A stretch of 64,000 bases of DNA, from assembly GCA_000091205.1 (NCBI GenBank), contig AP006497.2. One strand, written 5' to 3'. The DNA comes from Cyanidioschyzon merolae (Eukaryota). Positions 4,539 through 64,000 of the stretch are shown here, in pieces (position 1 is the first letter of the stretch; each line of letters starts with the position of its first letter). The position numbers and the translations under genes were made by a program. The notes under the pieces are model-generated. The model was not told where the DNA came from and made no database searches. It worked only from the letters and a program-made list of their open reading frames with translations.

Positions 4539-4897
4539 CAAACTCGAACATTATTCCATATTCATGGAGGAGAAGCGTCCAGGCAACCTCTCTTCTTTCC
4601 ATAAGCTCATAAATTCCGCCACCCTTCGGCGGTTGTCTATCCTTCTGATCAAACTGCAGAACTAGCTTGCGGACCACATATCCGTTTTCCTAATGTCTAT
4701 TTGAGGCTCAGACAAATATTCCGAAAACGCTTGAAAAGCATTCTCTGTGATGAGTGTTACGTACACAATTTCGCGCAGAGGGCTCTCTCATGCAGACGCT
4801 GCCGATCGTTGGAATCATTGCGATTACCTCCTCAAGAAGTTTTTTCCTCTGTTGCTCTATTGAATCGGGAGCGTGAGCTTAGAGTTCGAACAGAGAT

Positions 4898-11635: not shown

Positions 11636-13709
11636 AGCGTGCACGTTGCATAGGCTTGAGGATCCAAATTATAGGCGAGCAGCAAGCGCTATGAATGCCC
11701 TGTTCATATAAATGCGTGATGCATGCTGCAGCAAAAGTGAAACCGGGCATGGATGCGGCATGTCGACTCTTGCGTGCTCCTCACACAACTGAGTTTGATC
11801 AGACTCCTGAATAGCCCGGGCGAAAGTTGCGCTCTCTTGAGTAGAGGAACTGGCGAATCGATTAGGGTCCAAGTTCACCCTTGAAATTTAGCTCAGTACT
11901 CACAGCTCAGCTCGCACTCGTTGCAGTCGCCTTTCTTGGGCCATCATGGAGCATTGATGAGTCTCGCCACTCTTCATCTGGCGCGCGTTCCCTGTCAGTG
12001 GCGCGAATACGTACCTGACCTCCTTCGCGGGCAAGAGCGCGATCTAGCAATGAAGCGGTGCGTTTCCGTGGATTGGTCGCCGGATTCATGGACCCTGCGT
12101 GTTCCATCCGCTGACGGAAACGCGTTTCCATTCTTTCAAGAATCTCGATTCGGAGCGTGGGTTTAGCAGCGCAAAATCAGCGCTCGTCGTCGGTCTGAGC
12201 GCCCGCAAACCAGTTTCCGCAGCGTGCCAGCGACGTGGAACAACACGCGTGAGGGATTCGACGGTCAGGTCCAAGTCTTGGGACAGGAAGTCCCGTCGAA
12301 GCTCCCAAAGCATTGTATTTTATCCGTTACAGTGGTAGCCACCGACGCATCTGCATGCAGCTTTGGCCAGGAGGGCGCTTCCGGCGTACGCACCATCTAT
12401 CTGAAAGGTGGCATTCAGGCTTGGCCACCACCATTGCACGACTAAATTGGCGAAAGCATCTTCTGATGTGCCGTATCAAAGCTCTGTTACTTTTCGCCCA
12501 TGCCAGGGGTACCCCGTCGGGCGCACATGCTTCGATGCCCCTGATCCGTGAGCATGTTTGAACTCGATGTTCAGGGAGACAAATACCGAAGCTGAAATAC
12601 TGCTGTTGCGACCATGTCGCTGTTGACGGTTGTATCCGGCACTGGTGACCTTGGCGGCGTCGGAAGCTCGCACTGAACCGGAATTCTTGGATGCACGATT
12701 GCCGTTTGCTGCTATGAGAGCGAGCCAAACAGGCCGGTCAGGCCTTTAGGATCTAAGATGCATGCATAGAACCATTAGACTCAGACGCTAGGTCACGTTT
12801 TGCATCCTGGAAACAGAGCGAAAGAGGTCTGAGTGATAGCTAGGGTCTGAGATTCACGCAGCTAACCAGAATACTCGAATACTCGATTGCTGTTTGCATG
12901 CGGGAAGGGGACCCCGGAGGCTTGTTGAGTATTGAGGCAGTAAGAGTCATGAATCTTACGAGAATCCTCGGATACACAAGTACTGTTTGCGGACAGCGGC
13001 CTAGAATCACCGCTCTTTTCCCGCGGAGCCGCCTCGATATGCAAGGTGCATTCCACGCGCTATAAAGAGTGCGTTGATCGAATGCCGTTAAATGAGGCGT
13101 GCAAATGCCGGATACTGGACCTTTCTTTTGTCAAGATGAGCACGGAAACATCTGGTTAGTAATGTCAAACATGAATATAGCAATCTGTTTCTACATCGAA
13201 AGCCGCGAGTCAGCAACGCAGCATGCTCGTTGCTGCGGACGGGGGTTTATTTTAGTGAGGCGTAGAACACATGCTACGCAGATCATGGACGTCGCTATCA
13301 TTGGCATTACCATCTTGACATCCTGCATAAAAGTAAGTTGCATTCAGTTGGCGGCCTCTCTATTTCCAAGAGCACGATCACGGTCCGGCAGGAAGTTGTA
13401 GGCGCTAAAGTGGTGGTCAATTCTCTCCGATCGCATTCAACTTCGCTGTTTCGCAACACGCCGTCCATGTTGTAGAGTCTTTACTAGCCTTAATCTCTTG
13501 TCTTTAAAAGACGGTTTGCAGGCAAGTTATCAGGTGGCAAAGTCACCTGTCTGTGTTGGAAACGACAATTTGCCGTCGAAGGTGGCGGAGCGTTGCTTCT
13601 AGATATTACGAACGGAAACAAATACCTCCCTTCTTGCCAGAGATCACACTGGAGGTAGAAAAACGCTTTCTCCGTTCCTGCTACGAATCTGCAGCCCCTG
13701 CTGGCTCCG

Positions 13710-22337: not shown

Positions 22338-24929
22338 GCGTCTCGAGACCTGTTGAGCTTCGTTATGGCGAGATTCATGCCTGCAAATATATGTTAGAAA
22401 TGTTTCTAACGAAATATGCGCAGTTGAAGCCATAAGCTTGAGTTTTGACTGGAGCCAGAAGATAGAAACAAAGGCGCTGGTTACCGCAGCAAGCCTGAAT
22501 ATGCATTTGTGACCTGATTTTTCTGAGCTGTATTCTCTAGGTGCGCTGCGTCCGTATGCGATTTTTCAGCTGCGACATTTCCGGCGATGGGCGCGGAGTG
22601 TGTGTGACCGAGTTAAAAATCAGCGTGGCAACAGATTCCGTTCGAAACTTGTAGAAGGAAGAAACTCATTGTGAAGAATCGGTAGAGGAACAGCAGGGGG
22701 GTGGATGGCGCGTATGAGCTTTGAAACGGTGTGCGATGCAGCTCCCAAACAAGCACAATACTTAATCCAATCGGCTGGATCGCTTGGCTTCACAAGCTTT
22801 CGCAAAAAGCTTGGAATGGACACTGAACAGGATTCACCAAATCGTGGTGGACGAAAGCAGCCTCGTGTTCCAAACACAAATGTTCGCAGTTTTAAGGTAA
22901 CATGTCGTACATGTAAGCAGAATTCTATGCCGAATGATAAACTCGACACCTGTAGGAAAATGGCAGGGCACGTAAGCAGTCTCATATGCGTAAGGAGAGG
23001 GTTGTCACTTTGAAGAAATAGATTGTTTGACGAAAGCAGGTTTGGGTGCTATATGCTAGGCTTGAAATTTTAAGGAACTAGATCGTGGACAGATTCTGTC
23101 TTGTTCACCAAGGGGGAAGCGGAACATTTTGAGGAAAGAGATAAGATCGTCAAGACGAAACAGATGTCTCGCTGTTGGACTCGCACGATGAAAGCATACC
23201 AAGCATTGGTTTCAAAGTGCGAAACAAAACATCAGATGAGTCGCAAGCGTGGAATGCAATACCTTTGAATATGTTGTAATCTGCAAAGGGCTTCCATTCC
23301 CATGGCAGAAAAAATGGACCAGGCCCTTCGACACGAGCGCACACGCTAAAGTCTGGTTCGCTTCTCAACGTTGCCAACATCAGCTGTTGTGGATTTGTTC
23401 TGCGACTGCTTCCCTCATCTCTCTGATCTCTCCAGCTTTCAATACGCCGGTCGCTCCTGTCGCCAAGGTCCATTGTCACACGTCGACAGATGTTAATGGC
23501 AGCACGCAAGTATCGATGCCGCTGCCTACGGCTATTGTGGATGCATTTCACTCGCAGATCGTAGTTGTGATGGTACTTCGCTTGCCATTTTTGTCTTCTT
23601 CGTATACCGTCGCGATGGGTTTTCGTGACGGAGGCATATGACTGTAATCGGCGTGGTCCCGTGTACTCACCAAACCCTCTCCGGGCGCCCGGCTACGGTG
23701 CGTGAAGGCTTGCCTCATCGCTCAGTTCATGATCTTGCTGGATATAGAAGGCTCTCCTTGATGCCCTCCATTACAGCTGCGTCCGGCGCCTTACCCTAAA
23801 CTCGCGAACTTCTTCTGTTCGATCTCCTTTGCGCGTACTCTGTCCGCTGCACGTGGAAGCGCACGCTAGTCCTTTCGACGGGGGATTTGCGGAACGCGGT
23901 ATTGTATACGATTGAACCAGAACTAGAACGAAACTCCGGACTGGGGTGAAAGTCGAAAAATGTCGATCCGAGTAAGCGCCTCGCATGCAAATAGGTGACA
24001 CAGTCTGAATGAGGTGCAATCGCTGAAGTTCGAGTCCGCAACTGTTTGCCATGCAAACGGAAGCGACGAGAGCCCTTGAGAGCATATTCTATGAGCGGTA
24101 TCATGCCGATGTCGAATGCCATGTATTCTATGGCCACAAAATGATGAGGTGTTATGCTCGAATGGGGTCGATCATCAGACGTGAGAAGCTCAGTGCTGCC
24201 CTGGGCATGAGCTTATGGAGACCTGGCACCAGGAAGTCGTCTGTTCTCTATTCGTCGTCAGGCCAGCAGTGCAAATCGCTGCGCCCACGAGTTGGCTTGA
24301 GAAAGAAAGGTCGAAAACTTGAGGAACGCATGATTTGAGCATGCAACAAGTAACGGAAGGAGAAGGTTTGAGTCTTGCGTGAATGTTTTGGATCATAATA
24401 TGGTTTACTATTCGAACCCCTATTCAAAGGCGTAGGAAATCATCATGATTCTATTGACGCACCAAATTCCAGCGGCAAGTTGTGAGTGCTCAACTCCGAA
24501 ATGATCGAGCGTTTCAAAATCATCTATGACTCCATACGCCCGTATTCCTTCACTTCAAATCTTGAGGCTGAGCAACTAAAATAAGTACGGAAAATATCGA
24601 ATAGCTGAACAGAATGAGCAATTTAATATTCCATTTAAAAGCAACAAGCTGTACTTGACAAGGTCTCACGCACGAAGTAATTGAAGGGTTCTTCCAGATC
24701 TGGATAAAATGGCACTCACATCAATCGTTAGGTCGAACACCACGTCTCATTTTGCTCCGCCGATGGGTTCATGGCGAACAACACCAGTACTCTCCGTAGA
24801 AGGTGCTCTGTCGTGTCACAGTAAACACTCACATTAGGCAAGGGGATGCTACGCTATTCGAGCGACGATGTGATCTACCAGCGGAAGTCGATGTGCCCAG
24901 TGCCACCGTTGAAGTTAGACAGATGGGAG

Positions 24930-25210
24930 GCTAAACTTCTATTCGAAGCCTCGATTCGAGCGTATAACTTGCCAAAGTGTCGTTCTGGTCTTCCATCTCT
25001 ATTTTTTTCCTGGGTACTGCGGAAAGACTGACCTGGGAGAGGAATGCAGTCCCCCTAGTACTGTCCAGGAAAGAATATATCCTGCAGGCAATTCTTCAAA
25101 GATCTATGGGCTACATCGCACACTGTTTTCGATCTCCTGCTCGATACCGTATCGGAGATGGAACAAGAGTAAGTTGGAAGACCATAAGACCGCTTTCTTT
25201 CGAGTGCTTC
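24930..25210 (+). repeat. Dispersed non-coding repeat, copy A of two in this window (the other is at about 31000-31290).
   Basis: Nucleotide similarity to 31000-31290 is extended but gapped. The core GAGGAATGCAGTCCCCCTAGTACTGTCCAGGAAAGAATATAT (25039-25080) matches GAGGAATGTAGTCCCCCTTGCACTGTTCCGTAAAGAATATAT (31113-31154), and both flanks are conserved (for example CTATGGGCTACATCGCACACTG versus CTAAAGGGTACATTGCATCGTG). Neither copy has a consistent ORF. Confidence 0.5.
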
Positions 25211-29871: not shown

Positions 29872-30999
29872 CGCTTACCCGTAAACCTTTGGGTCAGACG
29901 TTCAAGCGCCCGCACTCACGATGCCTGCACGACGCGGGGGGCGCAAACCAGGTTCCTGCCGTCTACCTCCTGATGCCCTGTCTTCAACAAAGTTTCCTAC
30001 CTTGGCACAACGTAGGTGCTCTCTCCGATCCTTAAGTCGGTGCAGTGGACGTATCAGCACCGGTTGGTCGCGGATGGAGCTGGACCCCAAACCGTGCGGA
30101 AACACGCCGGAGCACGTCGAGTCTGAGGGATATTCGGGCGTGACTTGACCAACCGCAAATTGATCCAAAAAGCGCAAACTCTCACACACCGCGGAATTCC
30201 AAGAATTTTGCATGAAAGCACTTAATCGCACGCCTAGCGAAACTGGTGCGGGCGACACCAAAGCGCGCTTTTTCGCGCCCAGTCGCGTGCCGCAAAGACA
30301 CGCAGTGAGGGGCAACACGCATGCGCATGTCCGCTGACTACGTGTCCGCATTGTGGCGCGCGCTTTTTCCCGCTGCTTCCCGAGCGTGTCGATTCATTCG
30401 CTTCACGAACTTGGAAAAATTGGCAGAAAAGAACCATTACCTGGCAACCCGATAACAATTTGCTTCCCCCTATACTATAAGCGTTCATAAGAGAAAGTTT
30501 CCGTATTTTAGAAAGATCATGGTCCAGACGGACAGTTCCGCGAGCCGAACGAGTCTGCCGGGTAAGTGCTCCGTGTCGCCAATGGCGAAGGCTGTAACGA
30601 GACACGGGCAGCCCGTCCGCAAGCTGGTTTATTCTGGGACTAGGGTAGTTAGGCTGCGTCTGGGAATCGCGTTTAGCGCGGTGGCCTCCTAGCATATCGT
30701 TTCGCGCTGCCGCAGGTGATACGGGTGTCTATGCAGCTTGCACGCTACCAGAATGCTGATAAACCTGACCCCATGTCTGGTGAACTACCTGTCGAGCTGA
30801 CGCTCTCAGTGGTATGACAAAGCCATACTGTCTCTGTGCCGCATCCGCGCCTACGGTAAAAGTGCTATGGTGGGGTACTCACGATAGGCACTTGGCGCTC
30901 GATAGAGCGTATGAAACGTTCAGTACATCTGAAAGGAAGCATAAGTAATGCAGCTTGGAAATGGGAGGAACGGCGAATGTGTTGCCGTGTGCTGATATC

Positions 31000-31290
31000 A
31001 AGCCCACAGTCGCGCATCTCTGCCGTGTGTAAACTTTTTGTCAAATTATAATCGTCTTTGTTTCATCCTTCTCCAAATATCTGAGTACTGTGGGATCACT
31101 CAAAATTGAAGGAGGAATGTAGTCCCCCTTGCACTGTTCCGTAAAGAATATATTCGTACACGCATTTCATTTACCATCTAAAGGGTACATTGCATCGTGA
31201 TTTCGGTCTTCCGCTATACATTGCGAAAAAGCACTTTATTGCACTCCGTGGGGTGAGTTAATGTTGATTTCAAAGACCATAGGCGTTACA
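31000..31290 (+). repeat. Dispersed non-coding repeat, copy B (homologous to 24930-25210).
   Basis: See copy A. The same orientation and a shared core of about 300 nt with indels support a nonautonomous TE, SINE or MITE-like element rather than a chance match. Confidence 0.5.
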
Positions 31291-34200: not shown

Positions 34201-37199
34201 TACACTATATCGTAAATCCGTATCTGTTTCAAGCTCTTTTTCTGTATCTGTTTCTGTGTGCACTCGTGCCCGTGATGTGTGAATCTCACTCCAAGCTCAT
34301 CGACAAGAATCAAACAGAATCGATCCCCGCACTAGTTGTAAGCTTTCGTGTGCGGAGCCGGCATGCAACATTTGCGCGCTAAAGCACGTCCAGCGCCGCA
34401 AGATACCACCACCGAACGACGTGACATATATATATCTATCCATTTCTAACTTGCAGTGCATTTTGGTCGATGCACGCTTCTTGCATGCGCACAACTGACT
34501 CTGCTTGCGAACCAAGCACGCTCCCTTGTACTCGTGCAAAAAATCGTCCGTTTGAGTCAGTTGGACTCTACGGAGTATAAGTTTAACGCAGACCGATCTG
34601 CTCGATTCGATGCCCAGAGCGTCGAGATGGGTTCCGACCCGGCCACTCGACACGCTGGTATATCTCCTGACGTCCTGCGTACCCAGCTCTCGCTGGTACG
34701 GAGGTCTGGGAAAACTGAATGCCTGCACCAGCTTTCCTTTCAGGTCTTTGGGTTCGGCCCCTTGGTTTGGAGATGCGGCGCTGGTTTTGACGCCTTCCAA
34801 CCTGGGATCCACGCCAAACACAAACGCTTGCTTTTCGCTTACCTTGAAGGGTTGAAAATGAGTGTCGTTACTCGACTCAGGCTTTGTCCTCAAGACTTTG
34901 ACAAAGTACACGTAGACTGATATTCCGTCGGCCTCCACCGTCGCTGTGGATTGCTTTTTATATTCTCCCTGTAAAGGAGAAAGCTCCGATTCGCTCCATC
35001 AATGCTGCTCGACGTTGTTCGAATGCTTCATATTTGCTCTTAGAAACCGGCCGTGGCTCACCGACAACGCCATACACTGGACGAGTGTCTACGATGAGCA
35101 TACGGGCTCTGATGAAAGATATCCCAATAACGTCGCATAGACACTTCAGGAAGCCATGGAGCTGGGATTCACAGAGCAGTTGTGCCATGCTCTTGCGGGC
35201 TCTGTTCAGGAACACTTCGAAACGCAAAATCCGAGGAATGTAGGCATCCCGTTTCACCGATCGTTTGGATATCACGTCCGCCAGTTCTGGGGAAAGGCTA
35301 TCACAATGAGTTGGAACTGTACGAAGCTACCCATATTCTCGTTGAGACATCTCTTCTGAGCTCGCTACCATTTCGAACGTTCCAGGTATCAGCTCTGGAC
35401 ATGATTTAATCGACGCACCCGCGATCGTTTTCTTCAGTATTCACCTTTCTGAACCAGTAACGTGAGGCTACGATACCCACAGTGTGATCCTAATGAAGCG
35501 CTCTAGACTAAACCGCATCTCACTCCGGTTTTTGAGGTCTGCTTGATACTTTTTCAATCTGGTTCTATAGACTTTTATTCCGATCGATGCGGCACCGCGA
35601 AGACTCGGGCATGCTGGAAAGCGTTCCAGCGAATCTCGGATCCTAGTAACAGGCAGTGATGCATCTTTAGCCCCGGGAGTCAGCAGTGCTCCAACATGAA
35701 GGCTAGATCGAAAATTTCGAGGGGAATATAGACAGCTCGTCGTCCTACGTCCCGTACTCGTGCGAAAATCTGTTTGACGTGGTGCGTCCAGGCAAGGGAA
35801 ACTGGGCTAGGCTTCCTCAAGAAAGCTGCTACGCAATCCCTACTGGCGCCATCTGTAATATGTTTTGGAATATTCTCTCCAGTGATGAGATTGAATACGG
35901 AGCCATTGAAAGCGCTCTCAGACTGATTTTGCGGCGCCGACATTATTCCCTTCCAGTGAATCCTCATCGTCGTGGCTGGAGGGTCTTTCTCTTCTTTGCC
36001 GGGTGGTTTCCTCTTCTTCTCCTTCACACGGTGGAATGCCATGGATGTGATTGCGTTACTCCATATCGATTTGGTTCCCTTGAGATTCAGACACATGGGG
36101 AGAACGACCGGTACAAAGCTCGCCTTCCCTACGAATCTATCCACAGCTATCAAATTTCCTTTTGTCACTATCTCTGTTGCGAGCATGTCCACGATCTGTA
36201 GTGCTTTTTAGCGTCCCATCACGCATAAGAGCGGAGGAGTGGCACGCTGGTTCGTGGATGATACAGGGTAAAAACGACTTGAGAGAGAACCGTGGCATGG
36301 ACGCGAACGACTCCTGAATTCATCCACAAGCGCACATGCGACGTTAAACAACATCGATGACGCCCTCAACTGCAATAAACTGGAGAGAATAGGTTGAAAC
36401 GAAATATAGCTCAACGCCTGTCTCAGCTGCATGTCGTCCTTTGTGTTTTGTAAAGGAAAGCGGCCATTTCGAAAAGTGAGAAAGACTAGTGAGGCGAAAA
36501 GCCCCGAAGTGCGTCGGCGACGAGTCCAATATGTGATGATGGTATCCTTTTTAGATTTTGTACACTATCACATGATTCGAATGCCGGTTGGACTTCTATT
36601 CCAGGAGTGCTGGCTTGTTTTGTGGTGATGGACATCGGGTTGACTTCTTCCACCGTCGAGTGACAAGCAGAATATTTCTCCCGCATGAATTCTCATCGAG
36701 TGAGTCAAACACCATTCTTTGCTGTCATCAGCGTTCACATTTGAGTACGAGATCCATTCTCTGTGCTTCAACACTTGACGGTCTCCTGTGGAAGCACAAT
36801 TTTCTCTTTTATCTATCCGTATCTGTTCATTAGCGGTCGATTCTGCGGTAGAGATCCTCCATATCCTGTGCCTTCTTAGATAATAATTCCAAGAAAACGC
36901 AGTGAATAGAATGAACCAACAAGGTTAACAACATGAAGGTAGAGTTTGATTAGTTCTGTTTTGGTGTAGAGCGTTTTGGATAAGGACTACGAGATAGGTG
37001 GCTCATCTACCAGGTGCCTGAAGAATTACTGAGTTGTTCATTTCGAACCTTTCGCGCCAAAGCTGTCAATGAAAGAATAAACTGCTGCCGCGACCGTTCT
37101 CCGTATTAGATGATATATTCCTTATGTTGAGAGCATTCGATAAAAACAAAAACAAAAAGTTCATGCACGTACGGGTGTTCAAGGGACACGCTAATTTCA

Positions 37200-38550
37200 T
37201 AGTCCTTCAACTCAGGATTTTTCACGCCCGCAGCAGTGCATAGCAGGAGATCGAAATCACGATACAATGTATTCTATAGACCATTGATCACTTGCCTGTA
37301 AGATATATACTCCTTACAGAACAGTGCCTGGAGGACTCCATTCCTCATTCATCTCAGGCATATCACAGTACTCAGATGAACGAGAAACACTCAAAGAAAC
37401 AAGAACAAGGGCTTCGCGTCGAAAACCGGTATTCTTAACAGGTGCTTGCGGTCAATGGTAGAAAACGACCCCTTGATCATATATTCCTGAAGGCAAAAGC
37501 GATGATAGTTGCCAGGATGGGCGTCTCTGTTTCTCAACAGCTTGTTCGTTTGGCCCTGAAAACACTTGGATACACTCGCGAAAAAGATCCCTATTTCACG
37601 CACAGCCATCGTCCACCAAAGTCGCGACGACAGCGTTCCCGGAACTTCGTTATCCATATGAAGCAGCGGGACGTCAATTCATCCTCGTCGCCGAGACTTG
37701 CTTCAGACGATACGGGTGGAGCGTATATGGGTATTCGAGGAGCAGGGCGGCCGTTGATAATACGGCCGAACTCGTGGAGACCGAGGACGTTATCAACTGT
37801 TCTGGCTGCAGTGGATTTACATGGCGGCCCCAGTTTCGCTCGTTGAGAAGCCTCATGCAATAGCACCAGCTTCGCCTTATCATTGACGACTTTTCCATGA
37901 CGTGTAGCGACGTCATTCTACTGGACGACATAGCATTTGGCCATTCCCATCGCGTTCGATTTTTTGGAGATCCTGTCCGGGTAGAGCTGCTCTTCAGTAG
38001 TCCGTTCTCTATGTGGTTCAAACGCATCGAAGAATGGTTTATTCTACTGAAACGTAATGGTCGCTCAACTCGTCGATTCGCTGAAGCGCTCAGTTCGGAG
38101 ACATCGGGACACATTTTTGTCTTTTTCCCGCAAGTGCTTTTCCCTCCGGGAAGGTCCTTACCTAAGGGCATCAAGAATTATGTTCATTTCAAAATGCTAT
38201 GGGATGAGTTGGGGTGTACACTTCAGAAGTTCGATATCGAGAAAAGCCAGCGGAACGCTTCGGCTATTGAAAAGTATGGAGAGCTGACCGAGCCGCAAAT
38301 GGCACCGAGGACACGAGTTCGAGGACTCTTTGCATTGGCAAGTTTAAGCGGCGTCATGAAAAGAATTAAATTCGTACGTCGAGACCAGAACGCCGCCATC
38401 AATATCGGGAGATGTCCTGTGCTGAACACGAGACCCGAGGAGCTGAGGCGAGACAACCTTGTGGGGTAGCCTCTCGGGCTCGAGTTGTACAAGGAAAAGC
38501 TGAAACTGATAGAAAGAGGCTCGTCAAAAAGGGATGGGAGGCATCTGCAC
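37200..38550 (+). mobile_element. Composite element copy: a mariner/Tc1-like transposase pseudogene (HTH plus DDD core) read through into an internally deleted TnpB/Fanzor-like C-terminal module.
   Basis: The left-end nucleotides 37215-37440 align with 62130-62365. ORF 37442..37846 has an HTH (MIVARMGVSVSQQLVRLALKTLGY) and the first acidic motif (LASDDTGGAYMGIRGAGRP). ORF 37897..38469 begins ILLDDIAFGHSHRVRFFGDPVRVELLFSSPFSMWFKRIEEWFILLKRN, the second D and D/E motifs of Tc1/mariner. It continues in frame to EKYGELTEPQ...VRRDQNAAINIGRCPVLNTRPEELRRDNLVG, with the NAAINI at 38391-38406. The terminal GGGAGGCATCTG lies at 38535-38546. Confidence 0.6.
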
Positions 38551-39245
38551 AGGAGTTTTCATTTACTCTTCTTGGGCGTTGGACATAGTTTTGATTCACT
38601 GGCGATGATATGTCTAGTATAACTCTTTCGCTACACGCATGTTCCGAGAATTTCCGCGAATCCGGTTTTGTCCGTGATCAATTTTATGGGATCAAAATAC
38701 ATTGGTCAGATAAGAGAGCTTTTAGTTGGCTGCTAATGCTGAAGGTTCATTTGATCTCTTGAATGCAGCAGATTAGATGCTTATTTCATAAAACCTCTGC
38801 TGTAGATCTTAATTTCGGTGGGTTCTTGCGATGGAAATAGTGGAGTATGTTGTATCGAAACGGTATCCGCGGAGTGCCCAGTTGAAAGCTCGACGCTTGA
38901 TGGTAAGTTTTCGACGCTTTGAATTCGGCAGCTAGGGTCGTGAAAGAGTTTGTGCTGGAGAGAAAGCGCGCATATTCAGCGGAATGCAACGAGGCACAAA
39001 ACGCCCAGAGCCGACCATTGCAGAGATCGGAGGCAACTGAGCGTGAACGTGTTTATTCCACAAGCGCCTCTGTACTACAGCCTCAGGTGAGCGCTCGCTG
39101 AATTGCTCACTGGCGGCAGCATCTCATCGTATTTAGATGCCGTTGGATCGCAAGCGGGTCGCAGCGCCAGAATTGACTCCCAGAACGACGCCCAACTTGA
39201 GAACCTCATTTTGATTCAAGTTCAACACGGAAACTTTATGTACGG

Positions 39246-40865: not shown

Positions 40866-42325
40866 TCATCGCCGTTCCGTCTCTGCCAGATGCAATTGGA
40901 AGAGTGAATAGCTCGAGCTGTTCCTGCTTTTTCATTCTTCCGAACTTTTTTACACATGCAGCATTGACGTTCAGATTGCATGAACGAGCGGTACATGATT
41001 CTTACGTACTTGTAGGATTCTCGGTCTTTTTTTAGATTTTGTTCTTACGAGACGTTGCGGCGGGAATTCGTTCTGCCACTGAAACCATGGTGATTCGCAA
41101 CGTCATCAACGAACAGATCGTAAAACAATCTATATCATTCTATAATGCGTACGCGGGAATCGCCAGACTTTCAAGTTCTTTACATGCAGCATGTTCAGAT
41201 CACGCATGCATCACCGTTTCGATCTTACTATTTCATGGCAACCCGTGAGCGCTGCAATTTGGGCGGATAGATTGACGAGGAAAACAACACCTCGTCGTCC
41301 CCCTGATGACTCGTTCACAAGTTCATGCCTAGAGTTCAATGAACTTGTCGCGTCTAATAGTCGATCCGTTTGCAGAGACAAAGACTCTTCTCTCTTGGGC
41401 AGTCGAGAAAACCAGAATCCGCAGCAGCATAATACCTCTCACGAGATATGCTTCCAGAGGCTTCCATCTCTTCTCTTTGCATAAAAAAGGTATTGGAGTC
41501 GGACTTGAGTTATCGCAGCGATCACTTCCAGTGCGGAATGCTTTGCCGCTCTGCGCGAAGGTAGCATACAGACACCGAAATTTCTCGACTTGTTCTCACG
41601 CCAGAATTTACCTTCCAGTACATGTTTCATCATGGGCAACCTCGCGTTCTGCATGTCCTCTATCGAGTGCAACAGCGTACACTTGCGCGTCCAGCATACA
41701 GAGTGCTAGACGATAGGATCGGCCAAGGCAAGCCCCCCATATAGGAGCGCTTCAAAGAAGGCGGATACGGAGTGACGCGCGGACAGGAGCCTTCTGTACC
41801 TGCCATTGGCATGCAACGAGCGTTGAAGCAAGCGTTCACGCGTTGTAGGACGGCGCTCGGAGTGCGATACCGTGTGCTGGATACCTTTTTGCTCCTGACA
41901 ACACTCAAATGTCAGCGGTACGAACTGCACACCGAGGCTGTCTGCAAACAAGATGAAAATGGCTAGCGAAGCATAGATGACAACTTCCATCGATGCATGA
42001 AATACATCAACAATAGCCAGAATCAGAGAAATCGGGATTTGCATGATTTCTTGACCATTCTTCGATAGCTGACAGCGGAGCTGGAGGGCAAGGAGAGATC
42101 AGCGTACTCAAAGCCGGAGACAAGATGGCGGAAATGGAAGACGTCAAAGATAGAGCCTGCAAAAGCTTGTGTTGATGGCAGTGTGAACTGACCCAAATCG
42201 TAATGTGCGCGTTCGCGTTCATCTAGTAGACCTATTCCATTTTTTATTCTGACATGGGTGGACGCTCGCGAACAGGCGGATCACTGCACAACAGCTGATC
42301 TCAACAAAACGGAGAATTGCAGAAG

Positions 42326-42490
42326 AATCCACATACACTCTTGTCTTGGGACGTATAGTCTCTGATCTCTGCCCTATCAAGTGGCACCAGAGGTTGTAGC
42401 GCATGCAAATCCACATACACTCTTGTCTCGGGATGTATAGTCTCTGGTCTCTGACCTATCAAGTGGCACCAGAGGTCGTAGCGCATGCAA
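42326..42490. repeat. Tandem direct repeat, two units of about 82-83 nt.
   Basis: Unit 1 (42326-42408) and unit 2 (42409-42490) are about 90% identical (AATCCACATACACTCTTGTCTTGGGACGTATAGTCTCTGATCTCTGCCCTATCAAGTGGCACCAGAGGTTGTAGCGCATGCAA). The repeat lies about 370 nt 3' of the EF-G gene. Confidence 0.7.
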
Positions 42491-46829: not shown

Positions 46830-47075
46830 GAAATCCAGGATGTACGGTACTGCAGGGTGGACAAGCTTTCAAATTCGGGGCACGTTGCTGTTTTTCAAAG
46901 GATCAAACGCTGGATATCCAGTTGTCTAGGTCCAAAACCGGTCCAAATTCGGTGTACATCGCTGTTGTTCAAAGGATCAAAAGCTGAATATCCGGTTGTT
47001 TAGGTCCGAAACCATCCAAATTCGGTGTACATCGCTATTTTTCAAACGATCAAAAGCCGTGTATACAGTGATGCA
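46830..47075. repeat. Minisatellite, about 3.3 tandem units of about 74 nt.
   Basis: Unit 1 is TTCAAAGGATCAAACGCTGGATATCCAGTTGTCTAGGTCCAAAACCGGTCCAAATTCGGTGTACATCGCTGTTG at 46894-46967. Unit 2 at 46968-47041 is about 88% identical. Partial degenerate units lie at 46830-46893 and 47042-47075. The overlapping ORFs 46693..46929 and 46697..46987 are artefacts. Confidence 0.75.
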
Positions 47076-49163: not shown

Positions 49164-50040
49164 AGAGGCAGTTTATTGAGAGTTATAGCGCACAAGGCGT
49201 GTGAAAACTGGCGGAGCGCACCGCAGGCGTCAGCGATGCGAAACAGCCGGTAAAGGACGCAGATGAATTCGTGGCCGCAGGGACGCGCAGCGCCATGGCG
49301 GCACGCTCGGACGCTGTTGCTACCAAAAGCAGGGGAAGCTCCATGCCGCAGGCCCTGGAGGGTTCCCCCAATGCAGCCCAGATGATGCACACCGTGCAGC
49401 TAGATGCACTCTTCTCCCATGCAGCATAGTCTTATCTTCCAGAGGTACATCGCACCGAAGCTGGTGTGGCGTCCTCGGTTGCACCAGCTGCGGGGCGACG
49501 TCTGCGAGAAACTCTTCAGTGCGTACGATTGTGGAATACTGAACGCACCTGGTTTCCATTTGCCAAAATGTCAAGACTGTCCAGGTATAATTCATGTGAA
49601 GAACAGGATATCCGTTTGGTTCATTCGAGGCTTGTCTCCGGAACGGCTTCGAAATGAGACCAATCATCGTGATCGGGGCAGATCTGTGGTCTCCATGTGA
49701 ATGGCGATACCTGCGGGCGGGGCTGTTGCAGCAGCTTGCAAAGAATGAGACGGTTCCGTTTTTGTAAATGCGTGTACAAGACGGGTCTCTCGCAGAGCTC
49801 GAGAACAATATCGCGTACGCTATCGTAGCGTGGTTGATCATGCAGGCATCGTGCGGATGCACTTCGCCCATCGAAAGACTTCGCTGCGCATATCCGTGCC
49901 GGGCAGGGGAGCAGAATGCTATCGATACTGGCTCGGTGTCCTCATTTGCTGCTTCGGCTTACGGAGGCAGTAGCGAATTGTGCACGGGATCGATGTTGTC
50001 GAAAAGAGCGCCTCTGCGATGAGGCGACCTGAGACATTGA

Positions 50041-50200
50041 ATTGATATCGGGCAAATCCATTCCCAGCGGGCAACTGGAAGTTCGACGCTCGGCAGCGGG
50101 ATCTCGTGGAAGGCAGTACCCGTAGCAGCGATTTGATATCGGGTAAATCCATCCCCAGCGGGCAACTGGAAGTTCGACGCTCGGCAGCGGGATCCCGTGT
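50041..50200. repeat. Tandem direct repeat, two units of about 68 nt separated by a 23-nt spacer.
   Basis: Unit 1 at 50041-50108 and unit 2 at 50132-50200 both read TTGATATCGGG[C/T]AAATCCAT[T/C]CCCAGCGGGCAACTGGAAGTTCGACGCTCGGCAGCGGGATC[T/C]CGTG, about 94% identical. Confidence 0.7.
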
Positions 50201-51299
50201 ACGAGAAGGCCAAAGCACATGAGCACCCCAACGGGACAAGTCGCGAGCCACTCGCACGATTTGCCGCTGCAGCAAGGTCAGCGAATCGAAACAGAAGACC
50301 ATGGATGGGCGGAAGCTGCCCAACACAGCCAGGAATGTCTGCGTTTTTCTCCAGAAAACTCTAAAAGTTGCAAATCTCAGAACGGTTTGCGTATTTGTTG
50401 AACGCTTGGACGCCAACACGGATACGGGACGATTTTCGAGAGTTTCGCCTCAACGCATGTACTGGAGCCTCTGGACGGACAGCATATCCGCGCGAAGAGA
50501 TTCCATATGTTTCCAGAGACAAAAAGTTTACGTTGATCGGGGATCCCATATTGCGGAATGGGTATTGGCTGTCGGGAAAGTGTCCATCATCCTGCGCTAT
50601 ACTCCCAGATTCCATCACCTGTTCTCGGGTGTACTGGTCGTTTTCTACGTTCGATTTTGCACCGAGCCTGCGGTGAGAACCCGCCTCAGCGCTTATACCG
50701 CTAGAGCAGAAGCATCACGGAGACCGGACTGCTTTGTCATACCAGTGAGGGCGGCGACTCGAGGCAGGGTGCACCCCGCACGGAATCCGAGGACAGTATC
50801 ATTCTGGAGCCGACAATCTGCGCAGGCAGACGTACTGCCTGCGGCACCGCAAAGAGATGTGCTGGGAGACCACGTCGACTAGGGCGATGGCTGGGTGCAT
50901 CCGAACCACTCCTGTTCCCAGAATAAACCTGCATTGCGGACGAGCTGCTCAGGTCTCTTCACAGCACTAGGCACTGGGAAGAGCACGACGCACTTACATA
51001 GCAGACTCGGTCGGCACGCCGGACATTCCGCCTCGAAGGTAAACTTTCCACAATACGGAAACCTTTTCCCCCTTTTAACGCCTACTGTGAAGGTCGAACG
51101 AAAGTATCATCGAATTGCCAGTTAGTGTTTAGCTTCTGTTGTTTTTTCTATAGTGCGGTCGATACGCGCACCTCGATTCCTGGCAGGCATGACACACGAG
51201 ATGCATCTCGCAGTTGATGAGAAACGCGATCCTTTTTTCGCGTGTTGCTCTAGCGTACAAGATGTATTTGCCTGAGCGTAATACCAAAGTAAGTTTCCC

Positions 51300-53600
51300 A
51301 ACTGAATTGTGTTCCATTCCCAAATTAGTGTATTCAAGTGATTTTTCTCGGTTTATAGGAGACGCGTTCGAAGCGCGTTCATCGTCAGAAATGGAAAATA
51401 CCAGAGCAAGTTATGGACATGGAAGTCGAGGATCCTGGAGGGCCGGTGTCGCCGGCTGCCGGAAAAATTAGGGAAAACAGTGGCGAGCAAAGAGGAACAG
51501 AAGAAGAAGAAGCCAAGCCAGGAGGACCGACATCAATGACTGCTAGAAAGACAACAATGCGACGAGTTGGTTGTGACAGCCTGTCTTCTTGGACATATCA
51601 CAGATCCGTGCAAGCCAAAGTTGCAAGCGGCCATCAGAAATCGTGTCATTTCGTACTCCCTGAGTATTCGAAATGCTTCTTCAGGACTAATGAATTTGGT
51701 GAGCAAGATATATCGCAGCGTGACAATTACGAAAACAGTCGAGATTCCGGAGGAATTTATCTACAAGAGCTTCATTTGTCACCTGATGGTTGGCACAAGG
51801 GAATCATCGAGGAGAAATGGGGGAGTGCACACCCTCCACGAAACCGACGGGGCAACAAAGTACCACAAGAGCCTGAAGAATCATATGACCATGAACCTCG
51901 AACGTTTCATGATACGCGCAGTGTTTGCGCCATACCCGGGAATCTCTCGCAAAGGAATATGGGCGACTATCAATGGCATCACGAACGATGGTCATCATGA
52001 AGATGAGATAGAATTCATCGACAAGAAGACGTCACACAGGAGCAAGAATGAAGCTTCTGTAATCCGTGCGCGTATTCAAGAGCGTCGTGGGTTACTGGGC
52101 GGGCGGATCCAACAGAAAAGATATCAGAGTTGAAAAAAAATATGCAAAGATACTATCGCCTCATCCTACGGTATTTCATGTTCCTGGATCGAGAACTCGA
52201 ACGCAAGGCAGAGGTGACGTTAAGTGGGGGAAAATGAAGAGTGGGAGAGACGGAAGGCTCTCCTAATAGGAGAGCGCTTCAAAGTCGTTCCGTTGTGGAA
52301 CATGAAGTCACATTTTGTGACTACCGACTCCAGAGTCCTTTACGGTATCATGGAGGTGATCAGTTCGGAGTTCGATGTAAGGAAGACAGAGTTCTCTGGT
52401 GAAACCCGGGAACGAACTGGAAGAATATCTTCGATTTCAAACGTCTGAAAGTAAGCAAACAAAAGGTATTCACTGGTATGATCGAAACAGATGGGGTAAC
52501 CATGTGTGTACACTATCGGTGCTTGAAGGTGGATCGCCCAGTTCCGCTCGTGACGAAGCATGAAGATGAGAAGGAGGCGGATCCTTCGACGCAGAAAGTG
52601 CAGGATAACGACTTTGTTGTTGGCGCGGACCCCGGGGAATATGAATATCATAACCAACGCAGCACCCAAGCGTGCGGAAGGTGGCATTGACGGTACCTTA
52701 CGTCAGAAAGACATGCGACTTTTCAGGTTTTCGAGAGCGAAATGCTATCTAGAAACGGGTAGAATGAATGCGAGGAAAAAAATCGAGAAATGGAATGCAG
52801 GAATGAGAGAGCACCTGGAAGCTGTGAGCGATGTGACGAGCCACGGAGCGGACGTTCAGGCTTTTCTGAAATTCATGGAAGTTCGCATATGGCGCACCGG
52901 GATGCGCTGTGGGAGGAGTATGCCAAGCCCCGGTGGGCTCGTTTGCGAATGAATCTATACGGTGGTAAGCAGCGGGCATTTGCGAATTTTTTCAATGAGT
53001 TGAGCTCCCTGAAGGAGGACGAGAGTCAGAGGCTGGTTGTAGCATACGGAGCAGGTCGCTGGATGATCCCGAACGAGACTACGCCAGCTCCAAGGACAAG
53101 AACGTACAAAGAGTGCGCATAGCGTTCCGGCACGATACCTGTAGATGAGTTCCGAACATCGTATACACACCATGAACTGGGGTGTATACTCCAGAGGGTG
53201 TAGATGGAAAAGTGTCAGCGGAGTCCTGAGGATATAGCAAAGTACGGAGCGCTGACGGAGGAGCAAATGGAAAGGGGGCGAAAGTTCGAGGACTTCTCGC
53301 ATTGGTACGTACAATCAATGGCAAGAAACGTATGGAGTTTGTGAACCGAGGCTTGAACGCCGCCATCAATATCAGGAGATGTGCGGTGCTGGAGACGAGA
53401 CCTCCAAAGCTGACGAGAGAGAATTTTGTGGGGGAACCTCTTATGGTCATATTATACGGCAAGAAGCTGGAACCACTCGTAGGTTGCCGGTCCAAAAAAA
53501 CCGGGAGGCGTCTGCACGTCAGTTGGACGCTTTTCGTCTGGGGCGCCGGTCGCCGCCACTTTTGTACACCGCCGGCGGCTGCGTTTTTCTTTAGAACGGC
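51300..53600 (+). mobile_element. Longest copy of the TnpB/Fanzor-like element. It holds a coding scaffold of about 2.2 kb for an OMEGA-type RuvC nuclease, fragmented across eight overlapping frames, and has no adjacent mariner transposase.
   Basis: ORFs 51413..52000, 51567..52133, 52066..52266, 52224..52448, 52478..52690, 52560..52952, 52790..53122 and 53302..53661 are all on the plus strand in shifting frames. A candidate RuvC-I motif is [10 protein letters not shown] at about 52610. RuvC-III reads FVNRGLNAAINIRRCAVLETRPPKLTREN at 53361-53375. The 5' leader TATGGACATGGAAGTCGAGGATCCTGGAGG at 51411 and the terminal GGGAGGCGTCTG at 53504 are shared with the other copies. Confidence 0.6.
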
Positions 53601-58531: not shown

Positions 58532-59954
58532 CCAGCAGCGTGATATAGGCTCTAGCGCCCACCAGGTCGGAACCGGCAGTAACTAGAATCCCCAGTACCT
58601 CTCTGGTGCTGAAGAGCGATAATCCGATTCCGGTACCGGGGGCGATCAGAGCGCAGCATTTGCTGCTGCCCGAGTCGAGGATCTCCTGCAGCAGCGCATG
58701 CGGCACCAAACCTGTTCACAGCGAAATGCATGCAGTATTTATGGGAAGGTAACCCCGCGCTCCGATTCCATCGGATATCACGAATTACTGCAAGCTATGG
58801 TGAAAACAGCTTGCGGTAAGGGAACGTCACGTACGGCGTTTGAATATCGGCATGATGTACAGGCTGAGTCATCGCATGGTGCACCAGGCGTGCTTTTTTC
58901 CGCACTGGTCGTGACGTCATTCATTGGCGCCGTGTGCATGGCAATGCATGCGTACACACAGGCGCGCATTTTCTATATACATAGACTCGAATGCGACACA
59001 TGCGTTCACTACTGATCGCTGTATACAGCGAGCACCAGCAGCAGCACTGGACTTGAGAGCGCCTAAAAAGAATAGAGACTAATCGCTAACTAGCTGCAAC
59101 TGTGCCGGAAGTACAAATACTAACAATTAAGTAGCTACTCGATAACAATTCCGTGCCACCTTCACGGTAAGCTTTGAAAAGGGAGCATTATCCCGTAATT
59201 TCGAAAGTTTACCTCATAGGCGGAGAGTCCCACCAGCCGGACGAATATGTCGGACCTGCGCTCCCTGCTGCTCCCAGACCCGAGTGCTGTGGCAAGACCT
59301 GTACAGATCGTCCATCACGCATTTCATTCACGGACTAGGAATGGGTAGGTTGCATCCAAGTGTCGCCCTGGTCGCTGTCGGCTTGTGGTATAGCGCTTCG
59401 CGTTGCCGCTGGCAGTAGGTCTGTCTGAGTAGCTTGCATGCACCCAGCATGATTATGGATCCCGATCCCGCACCATGCAAACTACACCTCCAGCCGATGC
59501 CCTCATCGATACCGTAAAGCGGTTCTGTCGCCCTAACGCATCTTCCCCAGCGGTATACGCGCTATTGCAGGTGCAGCAAGGCAGGCACTCGGCGCACGCT
59601 AGAACCTACGGAACGACAAGCGTATCCGAAAGGAACTCGCCGAAATGGAACGTGAATGCATGATGCATCATGATGGACGAGTTTCCGATTACCAATATCC
59701 ATCCCACAAACTGACATCCATGTACAAGTAAACGTTCTGACGAATGAGAAACATAGTCTTGAAAATGCTCCTCGACGGCGCCTGTGTCCAGATGATTCCC
59801 GCCAGGAGTGCGCAGCGCCGCAGGCGATCGTGATCCATCCTGCCTTGGACCATGGTATTCACTTTCCGCAGGCGGGGTAGTGTGTGCACAGTTTCAGGAG
59901 AGGCTGACGCACGTAGACGTTGTTTAGGGGAACTTTTGGCCGCGTTTAGGCCCT

Positions 59955-61781: not shown

Positions 61782-62129
61782 ACACGGCAGCATGAAATTT
61801 TCGGATTCAACTAAAATGTTCTTTTGTATTCAAGGGGGCAATGCGCTACGCTGTGTCCGATATGTAACCACGGAATGACGGATGATGCTGAATTGCTGCA
61901 TCTGATTGGATGTCACCGGAAAGGCAATTGCTGCTGACGACCACGGAGGATGCGTCGTTTCCTGCAAATACGACGATATTGATGGATGGTATCACAATGG
62001 GATAGCGTTTGGCGAAGCTGGGGACGCAGCGAGTCCTTTCTGATCCCAAGTCGCCGTGAATCCGGCGGTGCGTTCCTCGTAACCCGGTGATATGCTGCTT
62101 GTCGAAGTCTTGCGATTCAATTGGTAATA

Positions 62130-63640
62130 CCTCTGTTGCGTCTGGTAGAATGCTTTTCGGCAGTGCCGAACATGAGATCGAAATCCCCATGAAATATACC
62201 GTATAGATCGCAGACGAATTGCCTGTAGGATGTACGTTCCTTACTGAACAGTGCACAGAGTACTGCATTCCGTATTCAGGTCCGTCGTACCACAGAACTC
62301 AGATGGTTGAGGAACACGGAAAAAAAGAAGGATACGCGTTCCGCGTCAGCAACCGATATTCTAAAAGACTGCTTGCGGTCAATGGTGGTGGACGACCCAT
62401 TGATCACCGTACGAAAAGCAGAAAGCGACGATAGTTGCTATCGCGGGCGTATCTGAATCTCGCCAGCTTGTCGCTGTGCTCCTGAAAACACTGAGATGCG
62501 GTCGTAAAAAAGAATCCTAGTTCATGCACGATCAACTTCTGCTGAAATCGCAACTACGACACAGTCCCTGCAAGGTTACGATCGATATGAAGCACAGGGA
62601 CGTCGGTTCCTTTTTGCAGTCGACGAGACCTGCATCGAACGAAACCGTCGGCGCGTATATGGGTATTCGCAGCTAGGGAGCCCGTTGCGTATACGGATGA
62701 AGTCGAAGAGAACGAGGATATCATCTGTTCGATCTGCAGTGGATATATTTGGCGGCCTCAGACGCTTTCACGGAGAAGGCTCACGCAACGGCACCAACCA
62801 TTATGTCGAATCCTTGAGGACTTTTCCCTTGACGCCCAGCAACGCCCCTCTACTGGACAACGTGGCATTTCACCATTCTCTTTGGCTTCGAGCTTTTGCC
62901 GATTCCCGCGGGGCAGATCAGCTTTTCATTCCTCCGTACGCTCCGTGGCTCAACCGCATCGACGGAGTGTTTTCTATCGTGAAACGTAATGATCACTTTA
63001 CAGAGCGCATTGATGAATCCTTCAGGACACGGTGACACACCAGGGCACAGTACCTCGTTCGTCCACGTGTGCTTCTGCCTCCGGGACGCCCCACTCCCTG
63101 GGTCATATTGAAGTGCTTTCATCAAAGGAAATAGAACATCTATGGGACAGGTATGGACATGGAATTCGGGAATCCTGGAGGCTCGGTCTAGCCGGGTGTC
63201 GGAAGAGAAACGGAAACATCCTCTTCTCGCCAACCAGCAAGCGAAGAAGAGCAAGTCGTGAAGAAGAAGAAGAAGACGAGGAAAAGCGGAGATAGGCGAG
63301 GAAAGTTGGTTGTCCGATGTGACGATGACGGGACTGTAGTGGCGCAGAAGGCGCAAGTTCTAGGAATCCTTGCATTGGTACGTTCCACCAACGGTATTGC
63401 AAGCATGGCGTTCGTAAACAAAGCCTTTAACGCTGCTATCAATATCAGACGATGTGCGGTGCTGAAGACGAGACCCGCGGAGCTTACGCGATCTAAATTT
63501 GTATGGCAGCCGCTAAGGCTCGAAGTGTGCAGGGATAAACCGAAACCGATAGCAGGTGGCAGGTCAAAATACGCTGGGAGGCGTCTACACGTCGGTGTAG
63601 ATACAGACACGCTATCGTCGTGAAGCTTTTCAGGTTTCAT
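62130..63640 (+). mobile_element. Composite element copy: a mariner/Tc1-like transposase pseudogene followed by an internally deleted TnpB/Fanzor-like module. Its architecture matches the 37.2-38.55 kb copy.
   Basis: The left-end nucleotides align with 37215-37440. The HTH fragment is LLAVNGGGRPIDH at 62365. The DDD core in ORF 62685..63035 and upstream reads FAVDETCIERNRRRVYGYS ... PLLDNVAFHHS ... LFIPPYAPWLNRIDGVFSIVKRN, with D-to-D spacing of about 35 aa. The 5' leader TATGGACATGGAATTCGGGAATCCTGGAGG at 63152 is followed by a GAAGAAGAAGAAG tract. ORF 63258..63623 reads MAFVNKAFNAAINIRRCAVLKTRPAELTRSKFVWQPLRLEV...GRRLHV. The terminal GGGAGGCGTCTA lies at 63576-63587. Confidence 0.6.
62380..63035 (+). 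pseudogene. Mariner/Tc1-superfamily DDE(D) transposase pseudogene, frameshifted and short.
   Basis: The catalytic triad context is VDETC (first D), LLDNVAFHHS (second D), and PPYAPWLNRIDGVFSIVKR (third acidic residue, D). The 35-aa spacing is closest to mariner DD34D. An HTH-like segment lies upstream. The reading frame breaks between the HTH and catalytic parts. Confidence 0.55.
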
Positions 63641-64000
63641 CGATAAGGCATGGACATGCTCGTTGGTGGCAGGGAAAACCTCGCGAGACTTGCCGTGCGC
63701 ATGCTGGTGCGATCCGCTACTGCATGCGCCAGCAAGCACTTTATGAGCGCACTCACGGTCATGAGATCACGGAAGACCAGGATCCGCTACGACACGCGCC
63801 AGCAAGCACTTTAGAAGCGCACTCGCGCCCATGACAGGCCGTCATAGATCCGATTTCGACACCACTGGCGAGATTTCACGGGAATCGCCCAACTGGCTCA
63901 GGACTCGATGATCATCGTATCCGTGGATGCGGCACCAGTATCCACCGTGGATGCCGTCGTTGGTGCCGTCTGTGCTCGGAAGCCCATGTACTCTGCGTAC

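Follow-up and report, generated by a model that had tools for sequence, protein, structure and literature searches.

Fanzor1 proteins are TnpB-like RNA-guided nucleases, and their genes have been found inside DNA transposons. Specifically, the mariner-superfamily elements PUl-1 and PUl-2 of Pythium ultimum and PGv-1 of Phaeocystis globosa virus carry a transposase gene upstream and a Fanzor1 gene downstream (Bao & Jurka 2013, PMC3627910). Here, we analyze a 64,000-nucleotide stretch of the red alga Cyanidioschyzon merolae (assembly GCA_000091205.1, contig AP006497.2), called the window throughout, in which remnants of a Tc1/mariner-type transposase are repeatedly followed by the 3' end of a Fanzor1 gene. 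The most probable explanation, to which we assign a probability of roughly 85%, is that these are dead Tc1/mariner/IS630 copies of a Fanzor1-carrying transposon whose Fanzor gene was internally deleted twice, and that the deletion derivatives spread.

A Fanzor1 repeat, CMe-1A, is already known from C. merolae. It exists in about 150 copies, each approximately 80% identical to a 3169-bp consensus coding for a 734-residue Fanzor1, and some copies still encode an intact protein (PMC3627910). CMe-1A was described as having no terminal inverted repeats (TIRs) and undetermined target-site duplications, and was listed as "classification unknown"; its 5' 635 bp constitute a separate repeat, TE-N2_CMe (Bao & Jurka 2013, PMC3627910). 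An earlier survey of the genome reported only eight class II elements, together with a 253-copy "novel interspersed repeat" of 3.2 kb that resembles WSV486 and accounts for some 5% of genomic DNA (Nozaki et al. 2007, PMC1955436). Because size, abundance, and WSV486 similarity agree, we infer that CMe-1A and this repeat are the same. The composite architecture described below is absent from Bao & Jurka 2013 (PMC3627910), and a literature search, with Repbase outside its scope, found nothing that links C. merolae transposase remnants to CMe-1A.

Composite copies in the window and across the genome

A first-pass annotation, made from the sequence alone, had placed composite copies at 37.2-38.55 kb, at 62.1-63.65 kb, and, on the minus strand, at 7.4-8.9 kb. 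Sensitive self-BLAST and MAFFT alignment confirm all three as collinear copies with pairwise identities of 66-70%, here called A (37199-38550, plus strand), B (62160-63596, plus), and C (7451-8903, minus). This similarity is far above chance, and the feature is real. Subfamily consensuses refine the limits to 37200-38608 for copy A, 62104-63646 for copy B, and 8900-7405 for copy C. The proposed start of copy A thus stands, but its true 3' end lies about 60 nt past 38550. Each of the three is a complete composite with left end, transposase pseudogene, Fanzor remains, and right end. Copy A belongs to one subfamily (A-type), from whose consensus it was mapped and with whose loci L007, L008, and nine others it is collinear; copies B and C belong to another (B-type). 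Two further members of the wider family are called D, a short derivative, and E, a long CMe-1A copy.

Scanning metagenomes with the transposase consensus yielded 71 loci, about 30 of them distinct after de-duplication: 12 A-type and 18 B-type. Because the strains from which they come match the window at 99.4-99.6% identity wherever a comparison is possible, these loci sample the C. merolae genome. The count bears out the earlier proposal that the deletion derivative itself proliferated. Individual copies are 77-83% identical to their own subfamily consensus. The A and B consensuses agree at 96.7% of positions in the left end, transposase, and spacer and at 90.9% in the Fanzor stub, and the consensus stubs are 78-81% identical to CMe-1A.

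Could independent mariner and Fanzor fragments simply have come to lie nested or adjacent by chance? The window is rich in repeats (CMe-1A, TE-N2_CMe, and solo fragments), which lends this idea its only appeal. It is refuted, and we give it next to no weight: module boundaries are constant, and junctions are identical within each type, across some 30 loci with unrelated flanks. Nesting of independent elements with boundaries varying from copy to copy, an outcome named beforehand, is thereby excluded.

A decayed transposase of the IS630/Tc1 type

The transposase pseudogene spans 37267-38101 in copy A, where it is frameshifted, 62194-63035 in copy B, and 8833-8004 in copy C. The sole raw open reading frame (ORF) over the Pfam threshold is 62685-63035 in copy B, which matches DDE_3 at 1.7e-9 and contains the PPYAPWLNRID motif. 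A consensus of the three window copies was rejected: it matched DDE_3 at 6.5e-14, but at the first catalytic Asp it ran in the wrong frame, and just seven homologous fragments, all decayed, were retrieved with it. The contigs bearing those fragments supplied the extra copies for an eight-copy consensus. The latter specifies a protein of about 281 residues that matches DDE_3 (PF13358) at 6.3e-22, with 78.5 bits against a cut-off of 28.6.

The consensus catalytic triad consists of D (in SVDETCF), D (in LLLDNVAF), and, after 34 residues, E (in NPIEG). The D...D...D pattern with a spacing of about 35 residues that had been proposed is therefore right as to the DDE_3 domain and the spacing, but the third residue is E in the consensus and D in copy B only. 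By these signatures, the consensus transposase is assigned to the IS630/Tc1 type (DD34E) and not to mariner in the strict sense. A putative N-terminal helix-turn-helix (HTH) shows up only below the Pfam cut-offs (HTH_Tnp_Tc3_2 at 19.2 bits, HTH_33 at 18.8 bits). Comparable sub-threshold matches to HTH_23, HTH_28, and Tc3_2 occur in the intact homologue P0070, with which the pseudogene of copy A is colinear. The consensus retrieved 185 homologues, many of them intact proteins of about 295 residues that are 40-53% identical over 94% of its length. Identity to the Fanzor-linked "Mariner" transposase of PUl-1 is 32%.

The B-type consensus transposase contains no in-frame stop and only two frameshifts, both at homopolymer runs, and it aligns at 49% identity with the intact transposase of the environmental locus L013 (P0070) from Met1 to residue 277. 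Because of these features, the A- and B-type master copies probably encoded a working transposase, and no Fanzor, while they amplified.

The first-pass annotation had also drawn attention to a continuous ORF in copy A (37897-38469, 190 codons) that runs from the transposase C-terminus into the Fanzor stub. The ORF is present as claimed, but it is limited to this copy: in the consensus, a TGA stop follows AFSTR and the Fanzor stub lies in another frame. The continuous ORF exists because copy A lost the stop region of the transposase. It is an accident of decay.

Two internal deletions of the Fanzor gene

Downstream of the transposase, the composites match CMe-1A, whose consensus we took from Additional file 2 of Bao & Jurka 2013 (PMC3627910). 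In copy A, the Fanzor1 3' stub occupies 38205-38557 (71% identity; the segment 38204-38557 aligns with CMe-1A nt 2737-3093) and retains the C-terminal 120 or so codons, including the RuvC-III signature RD..NAAINI at about 38380. Copy B retains both a leader (63118-63275, ATG at 63153; CMe-1A nt 879-1007) and a stub (63347-63596; nt 2840-3092), which are joined at about 63337. Copy C, on the minus strand, is built alike, with a leader (7929-7825, ATG at 7887; nt 869-967), a junction at about 7708, and a stub (7708-7453; nt 2830-3089).

Two different junctions underlie these structures. In the A-type, CMe-1A nt ~905-2733 are gone: the spacer at the Fanzor ATG is joined, out of frame, to nt 2733, and the consensus reads CCAAGGGATG up to the junction and AGCTGGGG after it. 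In the B-type, nt ~1060-2825 are gone, in frame, so that CMe-1 codon ~55 meets codon ~643; here RRDDDETVV is followed by AQRARVLGILALVS. The resulting B-type consensus holds an uninterrupted frame of 148 codons (about 140 from the ATG) that begins MDMEVEDPGGP, passes through NRDFNAAINIRRC, and ends GRRL before its stop. The B-type junction is common to copies B, C, and D and to unrelated loci. Thus, the earlier idea of one shared junction holds for the 63-, 7.4-, and 3.2-kb copies, but the 38-kb copy carries the other deletion (CMe-1A ~905 to 2733). Likewise, a 5' leader plus a 3' end is what copies B, C, and D keep, but copy A retains only about 40 nt of the Fanzor 5' untranslated region. The estimate of about 1.7 kb for the internal loss is sound, alignment to CMe-1A giving 1.7-1.8 kb. 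Both junctions resemble simple deletions at microhomologies, and we read them as two independent events, of ~1.77 and ~1.83 kb, in descendants of a longer common ancestor.

Of the nuclease domain, RuvC motif III alone remains: VNRDFNAAINI in the consensus, VRRDQNAAINI in copy A, and degraded forms in B and C. The complete split RuvC (motif I D, motif II E, Zn-finger, and motif III RD) is absent from the composites, the deleted part including VVGADPG of motif I. Judged by these motifs, the stubs are Fanzor remnants and not Fanzor genes. Single-sequence searches of Pfam and the PDB with CMe-1 and related Fanzor ORFs returned no match. A profile of eight CMe-1-like proteins, however, matches the solved Fanzor1 structures of Parasitella (9cf0, 6.3e-12), Spizellomyces (8gkh, 1.7e-10), and Guillardia (9cer, 0.044), in a region that covers the C-terminal nRD.NaA.N motif. 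On this profile evidence, the parent family of the stub is identified as Fanzor1.

Intact relatives carry both genes

Environmental sequences contain relatives in which both genes are intact. All relatives that were examined have an ORF of 624-702 codons downstream of the transposase gene, in the same orientation. Specifically, L013 encodes a 300-residue transposase and a 702-residue protein that aligns with CMe-1 end to end (42% identity, 705 residues). The same pairing of a transposase with a Fanzor1-type ORF occurs in L014, L016/L017, and L090, and the L014 and L016 ORFs align with the CMe-1-like family.

The units are bounded by TIRs. Over 3441 bp, L013 (nt 396-3836; ENA ERZ27257101 k141_342296) and L089 (nt 16-3456; JGI Ga0102930_1005964) are 99.8% identical, and their flanks are unrelated; this 3.44-kb unit was therefore recently mobile. 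The left end of L013 is rearranged, and its TIR becomes visible only when L013, L089, and L090 are compared: a 30-nt repeat consists of TATACTCTGTGCATTGAATAATGAAACACC and the reverse complement of a terminus ending GGTGTTTCATTATTCATTTTCCCGGGTATA, with 24 of 30 positions matching. A TA adjoins both TIRs in L089. Similarly, L014 has a 26-nt TIR, 88% complementary, around both genes. The proposal that a Fanzor1 gene was captured in a Tc1/mariner-type element is thus supported by relatives that hold both genes inside 30-bp TIRs.

The unit of L013 and L089 has the gene order of the C. merolae composites, transposases 47-49% identical to theirs, a Fanzor1 that is 42% identical, a homologous TIR core (TGAATAATGAAAC), and, at about 3.44 kb, the length predicted for the C. 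merolae progenitor. It differs in that both genes are intact, the 30-bp TIR is longer, the GC content is near 47%, and its host does not resemble C. merolae. As for a full-length progenitor, whose existence had been raised as a question, its architecture is seen in environmental relatives, but none was found in C. merolae-type sequence.

One relative stands in a different setting. In L016 (nt 1-12882; ENA ERZ27292626 k141_158428), the intact transposase and its 669-residue Fanzor1-like partner lie among genes typical of giant viruses, their neighbors encoding NAD-dependent DNA ligase, eIF4E, GIY-YIG, a CoiA-like nuclease, and collar-domain proteins. This arrangement recalls the virus-borne Fanzor elements of Bao & Jurka.

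Termini and the retained 3' end

In the C. merolae copies, conservation begins at TTA followed by TAGTCTTTCAACTCAATTTTGTTCCAC (~31 copies) and stops at GTGAAACGTTTTTCGTTTCACTGACCA followed by TA (~29 copies). In copy A, these ends correspond to a left TIR region at 37200-37233 and to a 3' palindrome with the right TIR at 38572-38608, the consensus of which is TATGGTCGTGAAACG-TTTTT-CGTTTCACTGACCA and then TA; in copy B, the right end is 63614-63646. Aligned from its outer end, the left terminus agrees with the reverse complement of the right one at 19 of 34 positions (p = 3e-5 by shuffling), and the core of the right end, TGATCAGTGAAAC, is similar to that of the TIRs of the intact relatives. 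In the consensus of about 30 copies, as in L089, TA immediately flanks the conserved part on either side, which is consistent with a TA target-site duplication. Aligning the copies, as had been suggested, therefore does bring out imperfect TIRs flanked by TA, but they are weak, and the search for an empty site was negative.

A palindrome makes up the last 37 nt, in which the right TIR is preceded by its own inverted copy (-20 kcal/mol); folding of the consensus gives a 15-bp hairpin immediately next to the 3' terminus. One could suppose that the Fanzor 3' segment and this hairpin are a selected functional module: an omega-RNA gene that serves, in trans, the Fanzor1 made by CMe-1A copies, or a cis element for either transposition or 3' end formation of the transposase mRNA. 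Both independent deletions spared the last 270-360 nt of the Fanzor gene together with the 3' region, and where TnpB or Fanzor systems have been characterized, the guide RNA overlaps both the gene's 3' end and the right terminus of the element. CMe-1A copies with an intact Fanzor1 are, moreover, on record (PMC3627910). Against these points, only two deletion events are known, and retention may be chance. Pairing of the hairpin in individual copies (0.646) is close to that of a shuffled null (0.631), no covariation was detected among the copies, and an Rfam scan of copy A returned chance-level matches only. Additionally, the A and B consensuses are less alike in the 3' module than in the transposase part, and the hairpin is merely the right TIR after an inverted copy of itself. 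We thus consider a selected module unlikely. As for the first-pass suggestion of functional or RNA-coding ends, nothing favors it here beyond the retention itself.

A more specific version holds that the stub and hairpin are an orphan omega-RNA gene, through which the transposase-only elements borrow the CMe-1A Fanzor1 in trans for homing or retention. If so, two reciprocal derivatives would divide the labor, one supplying transposase and guide RNA, the other the nuclease. We regard this arrangement as more doubtful still. Most simply, the retained Fanzor 3' end would be the stretch that happened to lie between the deletion breakpoint and an indispensable right end.

CMe-1A as a probable reciprocal derivative

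The composites are not collinear with CMe-1A. Their matches are confined to its nt ~862-1060 and/or 2737-3092 (70-81% identity), and their ends are different. The first 75 nt of the composite, from the terminal TATAGTC, nonetheless reappear inside CMe-1A at nt 786-862 (58 of 77 positions, 75%; E = 4e-9). In copy E, the full-length but frameshifted CMe-1A member of the window (50518-53600, plus strand; consensus nt 5-3168, 80-86% identity, with ORF fragments that match the CMe-1 protein), this segment lies at ~51290-51370, and TA precedes it. After nt 862 in CMe-1A come the final ~45 nt of the spacer between transposase and Fanzor. Because the mariner left end sits at this internal position, CMe-1A appears to be the reciprocal, transposase-deleted derivative, and it looks like TE-N2_CMe plus about 150 nt fused to a mariner-type Fanzor unit that has lost its transposase. 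The 3' tail of CMe-1A yields only a gapped, unconvincing alignment with the mariner right end, and we claim no right TIR for it. By self-BLAST, the leader (51299-51464) and 3' module (53172-53523) of copy E are set about 1.7 kb apart.

The polarity of this relationship bears on whether, conversely, the transposase is the passenger, captured by a CMe-1-type Fanzor element that moves by other means, so that the composite ends are not mariner ends. CMe-1A was described without TIRs and unclassified (PMC3627910), and the TIR signal is weak in the C. merolae copies, both as such a capture would have it. The ends of the composite, however, differ from those of CMe-1A, its left end is contained in CMe-1A, a polarity opposite to that of such a capture, and intact relatives have clear 30-bp TIRs around both genes. 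The C. merolae right end is also homologous to the TIRs of those relatives (TGATCAGTGAAAC versus TGAATAATGAAAC). We judge a captured transposase highly improbable.

Copy D (3128-3736, plus strand; 3136-3678, comprising the leader and 3' module only, by self-BLAST) is a derivative of about 0.6 kb that is doubly deleted and has no transposase. It consists of a mariner left end, a Fanzor leader (3127-3371 aligns with CMe-1A nt 787-1010), the B-type junction at ~3429, a stub (3439-3678; nt 2840-3083), and a mariner-type right end. A second such D-type element occurs in L008/L031. Elements of this type start at the mariner left end and combine the transposase deletion of CMe-1A with the Fanzor deletion and right end of the B-type.

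An indel of 22-25 nt (consensus CTGCGTGTCATCGAATGCTTTTT), about 35 nt from the left terminus (for example, 62140-62165 in copy B), is present in about half of the copies, A- and B-types alike, and also in CMe-1A. Because it cuts across the A and B subfamilies, it suggests recombination among masters. At one locus sampled twice (L069 and L061, ~nt 4073-4373), a B-type copy has about 280 additional bases in one version, between consensus positions ~1152 and ~1079, as a local duplication or an insertion polymorphism. In L008 (= L031), the D-type element (2172-2704, minus) and an A-type element (2788-4115, plus) stand head to head with about 16 nt between their left ends; this pair could reflect a local hotspot or a rearrangement.

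A proposed history

We propose the following sequence of events. The ancestor would have been an element of about 3.4 kb that consisted of a left TIR, a DD34E transposase of ~280-300 residues, a spacer of ~125 nt, a Fanzor1 of ~730 residues, a 3' region of ~140 nt, and a right TIR. By cut-and-paste transposition, the DDE transposase presumably carried it, together with its passenger Fanzor1, into TA sites. Within the lineage of C. merolae, the bulk of the Fanzor gene would then have been removed twice by microhomology-type internal deletions, and the resulting A- and B-type forms, with an intact or near-intact transposase, would have spread as autonomous elements. Reciprocally, deletion of the transposase with retention of Fanzor may have given rise to CMe-1A; the D-type of 0.6 kb may have arisen from this loss and the B-type deletion together. 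The copies that we observe would be old and dead, each about 80% identical to its subfamily consensus.

Five points weigh against this history. First, no full-length transposase-Fanzor copy was recovered from C. merolae-type DNA: among the ~30 distinct loci, none has a full Fanzor gene. Second, given the two consensus frameshifts, the masters could already have been defective. Third, the D-type implies recombination between family members or recurrent deletion. Fourth, the TIR signal in C. merolae is weak to moderate, and 2 of ~3000 internal consensus windows also reach 19 of 34 matches. Fifth, TA is palindromic and might be the terminal part of the TIR, not a duplicated target, because neither an empty site nor a nested insertion was found: related strains (99.4-99.6% identical) contain copy B, and among candidate nestings the L008/L031 elements lie 16 nt apart and those of L076 and L029 are not nested.

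Other features of the window

Four long ORFs in the window match annotated C. merolae 10D proteins exactly, namely GPI (BAM81500), ABCG (BAM81501), BCAT (BAM81511), and a permease (BAM81514), all of them encoded on a 902,900-bp chromosome; an exact look-up of a 539-residue KBL ORF gave no match. Because the window is nuclear DNA of an intron-poor red alga, long host ORFs alternate with ORF-poor, repeat-rich spacers. The 773-residue GPI BAM81500 and a 648-residue GPI record, BAM81495, are 100% identical over 648 residues; their sole difference is a 125-residue N-terminal extension of the former (2962-3336, minus), the first ~70 codons of which are antisense to the D-type remnant. The extension is probably an annotation artifact, and the two records may represent a duplicated gene or two gene models.

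Solo fragments of the composite left end lie at 31057-31233 (minus; consensus nt ~28-209) and at 25010-25187 (minus; consensus nt ~52-185), the latter covered by consensus BLAST over 25010-25141 and extended to 25187 by self-BLAST similarity. Alignment of the CMe-1A consensus to the window reveals TE-N2_CMe-like copies at 30424-30959 and 59109-59739 (both minus). The first of these (CMe-1A nt 90-630) adjoins the solo fragment at 31057-31233, which lies about 100 nt upstream on the same strand. Outside the transposon family, short tandem duplications occur at 42326-42489 (82 nt twice, 94%), 46870-47057 (~74 nt twice, 87%), 50039-50199 (~91-nt spacing, 94%), and 63711-63834 (70-nt spacing, 85%). 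Diverged dispersed pairs of 67-68% identity are 9467-9715 with 41434-41682 and 23429-23600 with 42120-41947.

Comparison with known systems

C. merolae serves as a reference "simplest eukaryote" genome, and the main value of this work is to resolve the origin of its dominant repeats. Transposase-bearing copies occupy at least 30 loci, rather than amounting to eight class II elements, and they contain the remains of a CMe-1A-type Fanzor gene. Because CMe-1A holds the mariner left end while the transposase copies hold Fanzor remains, the main DNA repeats of C. merolae can be traced to one Fanzor1-carrying mariner-type transposon that was split reciprocally. Nuclease-less and transposase-less derivatives each amplified, which constitutes a natural experiment. 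The outcome fits the view that TnpB and Fanzor are dispensable for the transposition step itself, and it reveals no new mechanism.

Among the nearest counterparts of the composite is CMe-1A, which its leader matches over nt 869-1007 and its stub over 2737/2840-3092. CMe-1A differs in that it lacks a transposase, carries TE-N2_CMe and ~150 nt before the mariner left end, and has another last ~77 nt; the Fanzor part of the composite thus represents a lineage separate from CMe-1A, about 20% diverged at the consensus level. With the IS630/Tc1 DD34E family, the composite shares the DDE_3 domain, the DD34E spacing, a PPYSPxxNPIE motif, and, putatively, an N-terminal HTH region. Its transposase is, however, short at ~280 residues, with HTH matches below Pfam thresholds.

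Like PUl-1, PUl-2, and PGv-1, the C. merolae element has a transposase gene and then Fanzor1, both in one orientation, between TIRs and probably at TA sites. PUl-1 is also similar in its catalytic core (32% identical), and the relative L016 has a giant-virus-like setting. In contrast to those three elements, the C. merolae Fanzor is cut to a 5' leader and/or a 3' stub of 270-360 nt, and the dozens of copies are all decayed. Amplification of internal-deletion derivatives is likewise known from Ds, which derives from Ac, and from PUl-4, a Fanzor-only element with mariner TIRs. The D-type and the core of CMe-1A are transposase-deleted forms of the PUl-4 kind. The A- and B-types are the reverse of the usual non-autonomous derivative, having lost the passenger and kept the transposase. 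The C. merolae element is best classed as a decayed case of the Fanzor1-in-Mariner elements known from Pythium and algal viruses, with one less common trait: in the forms that spread, it is the passenger gene, and not the transposase, that was deleted.

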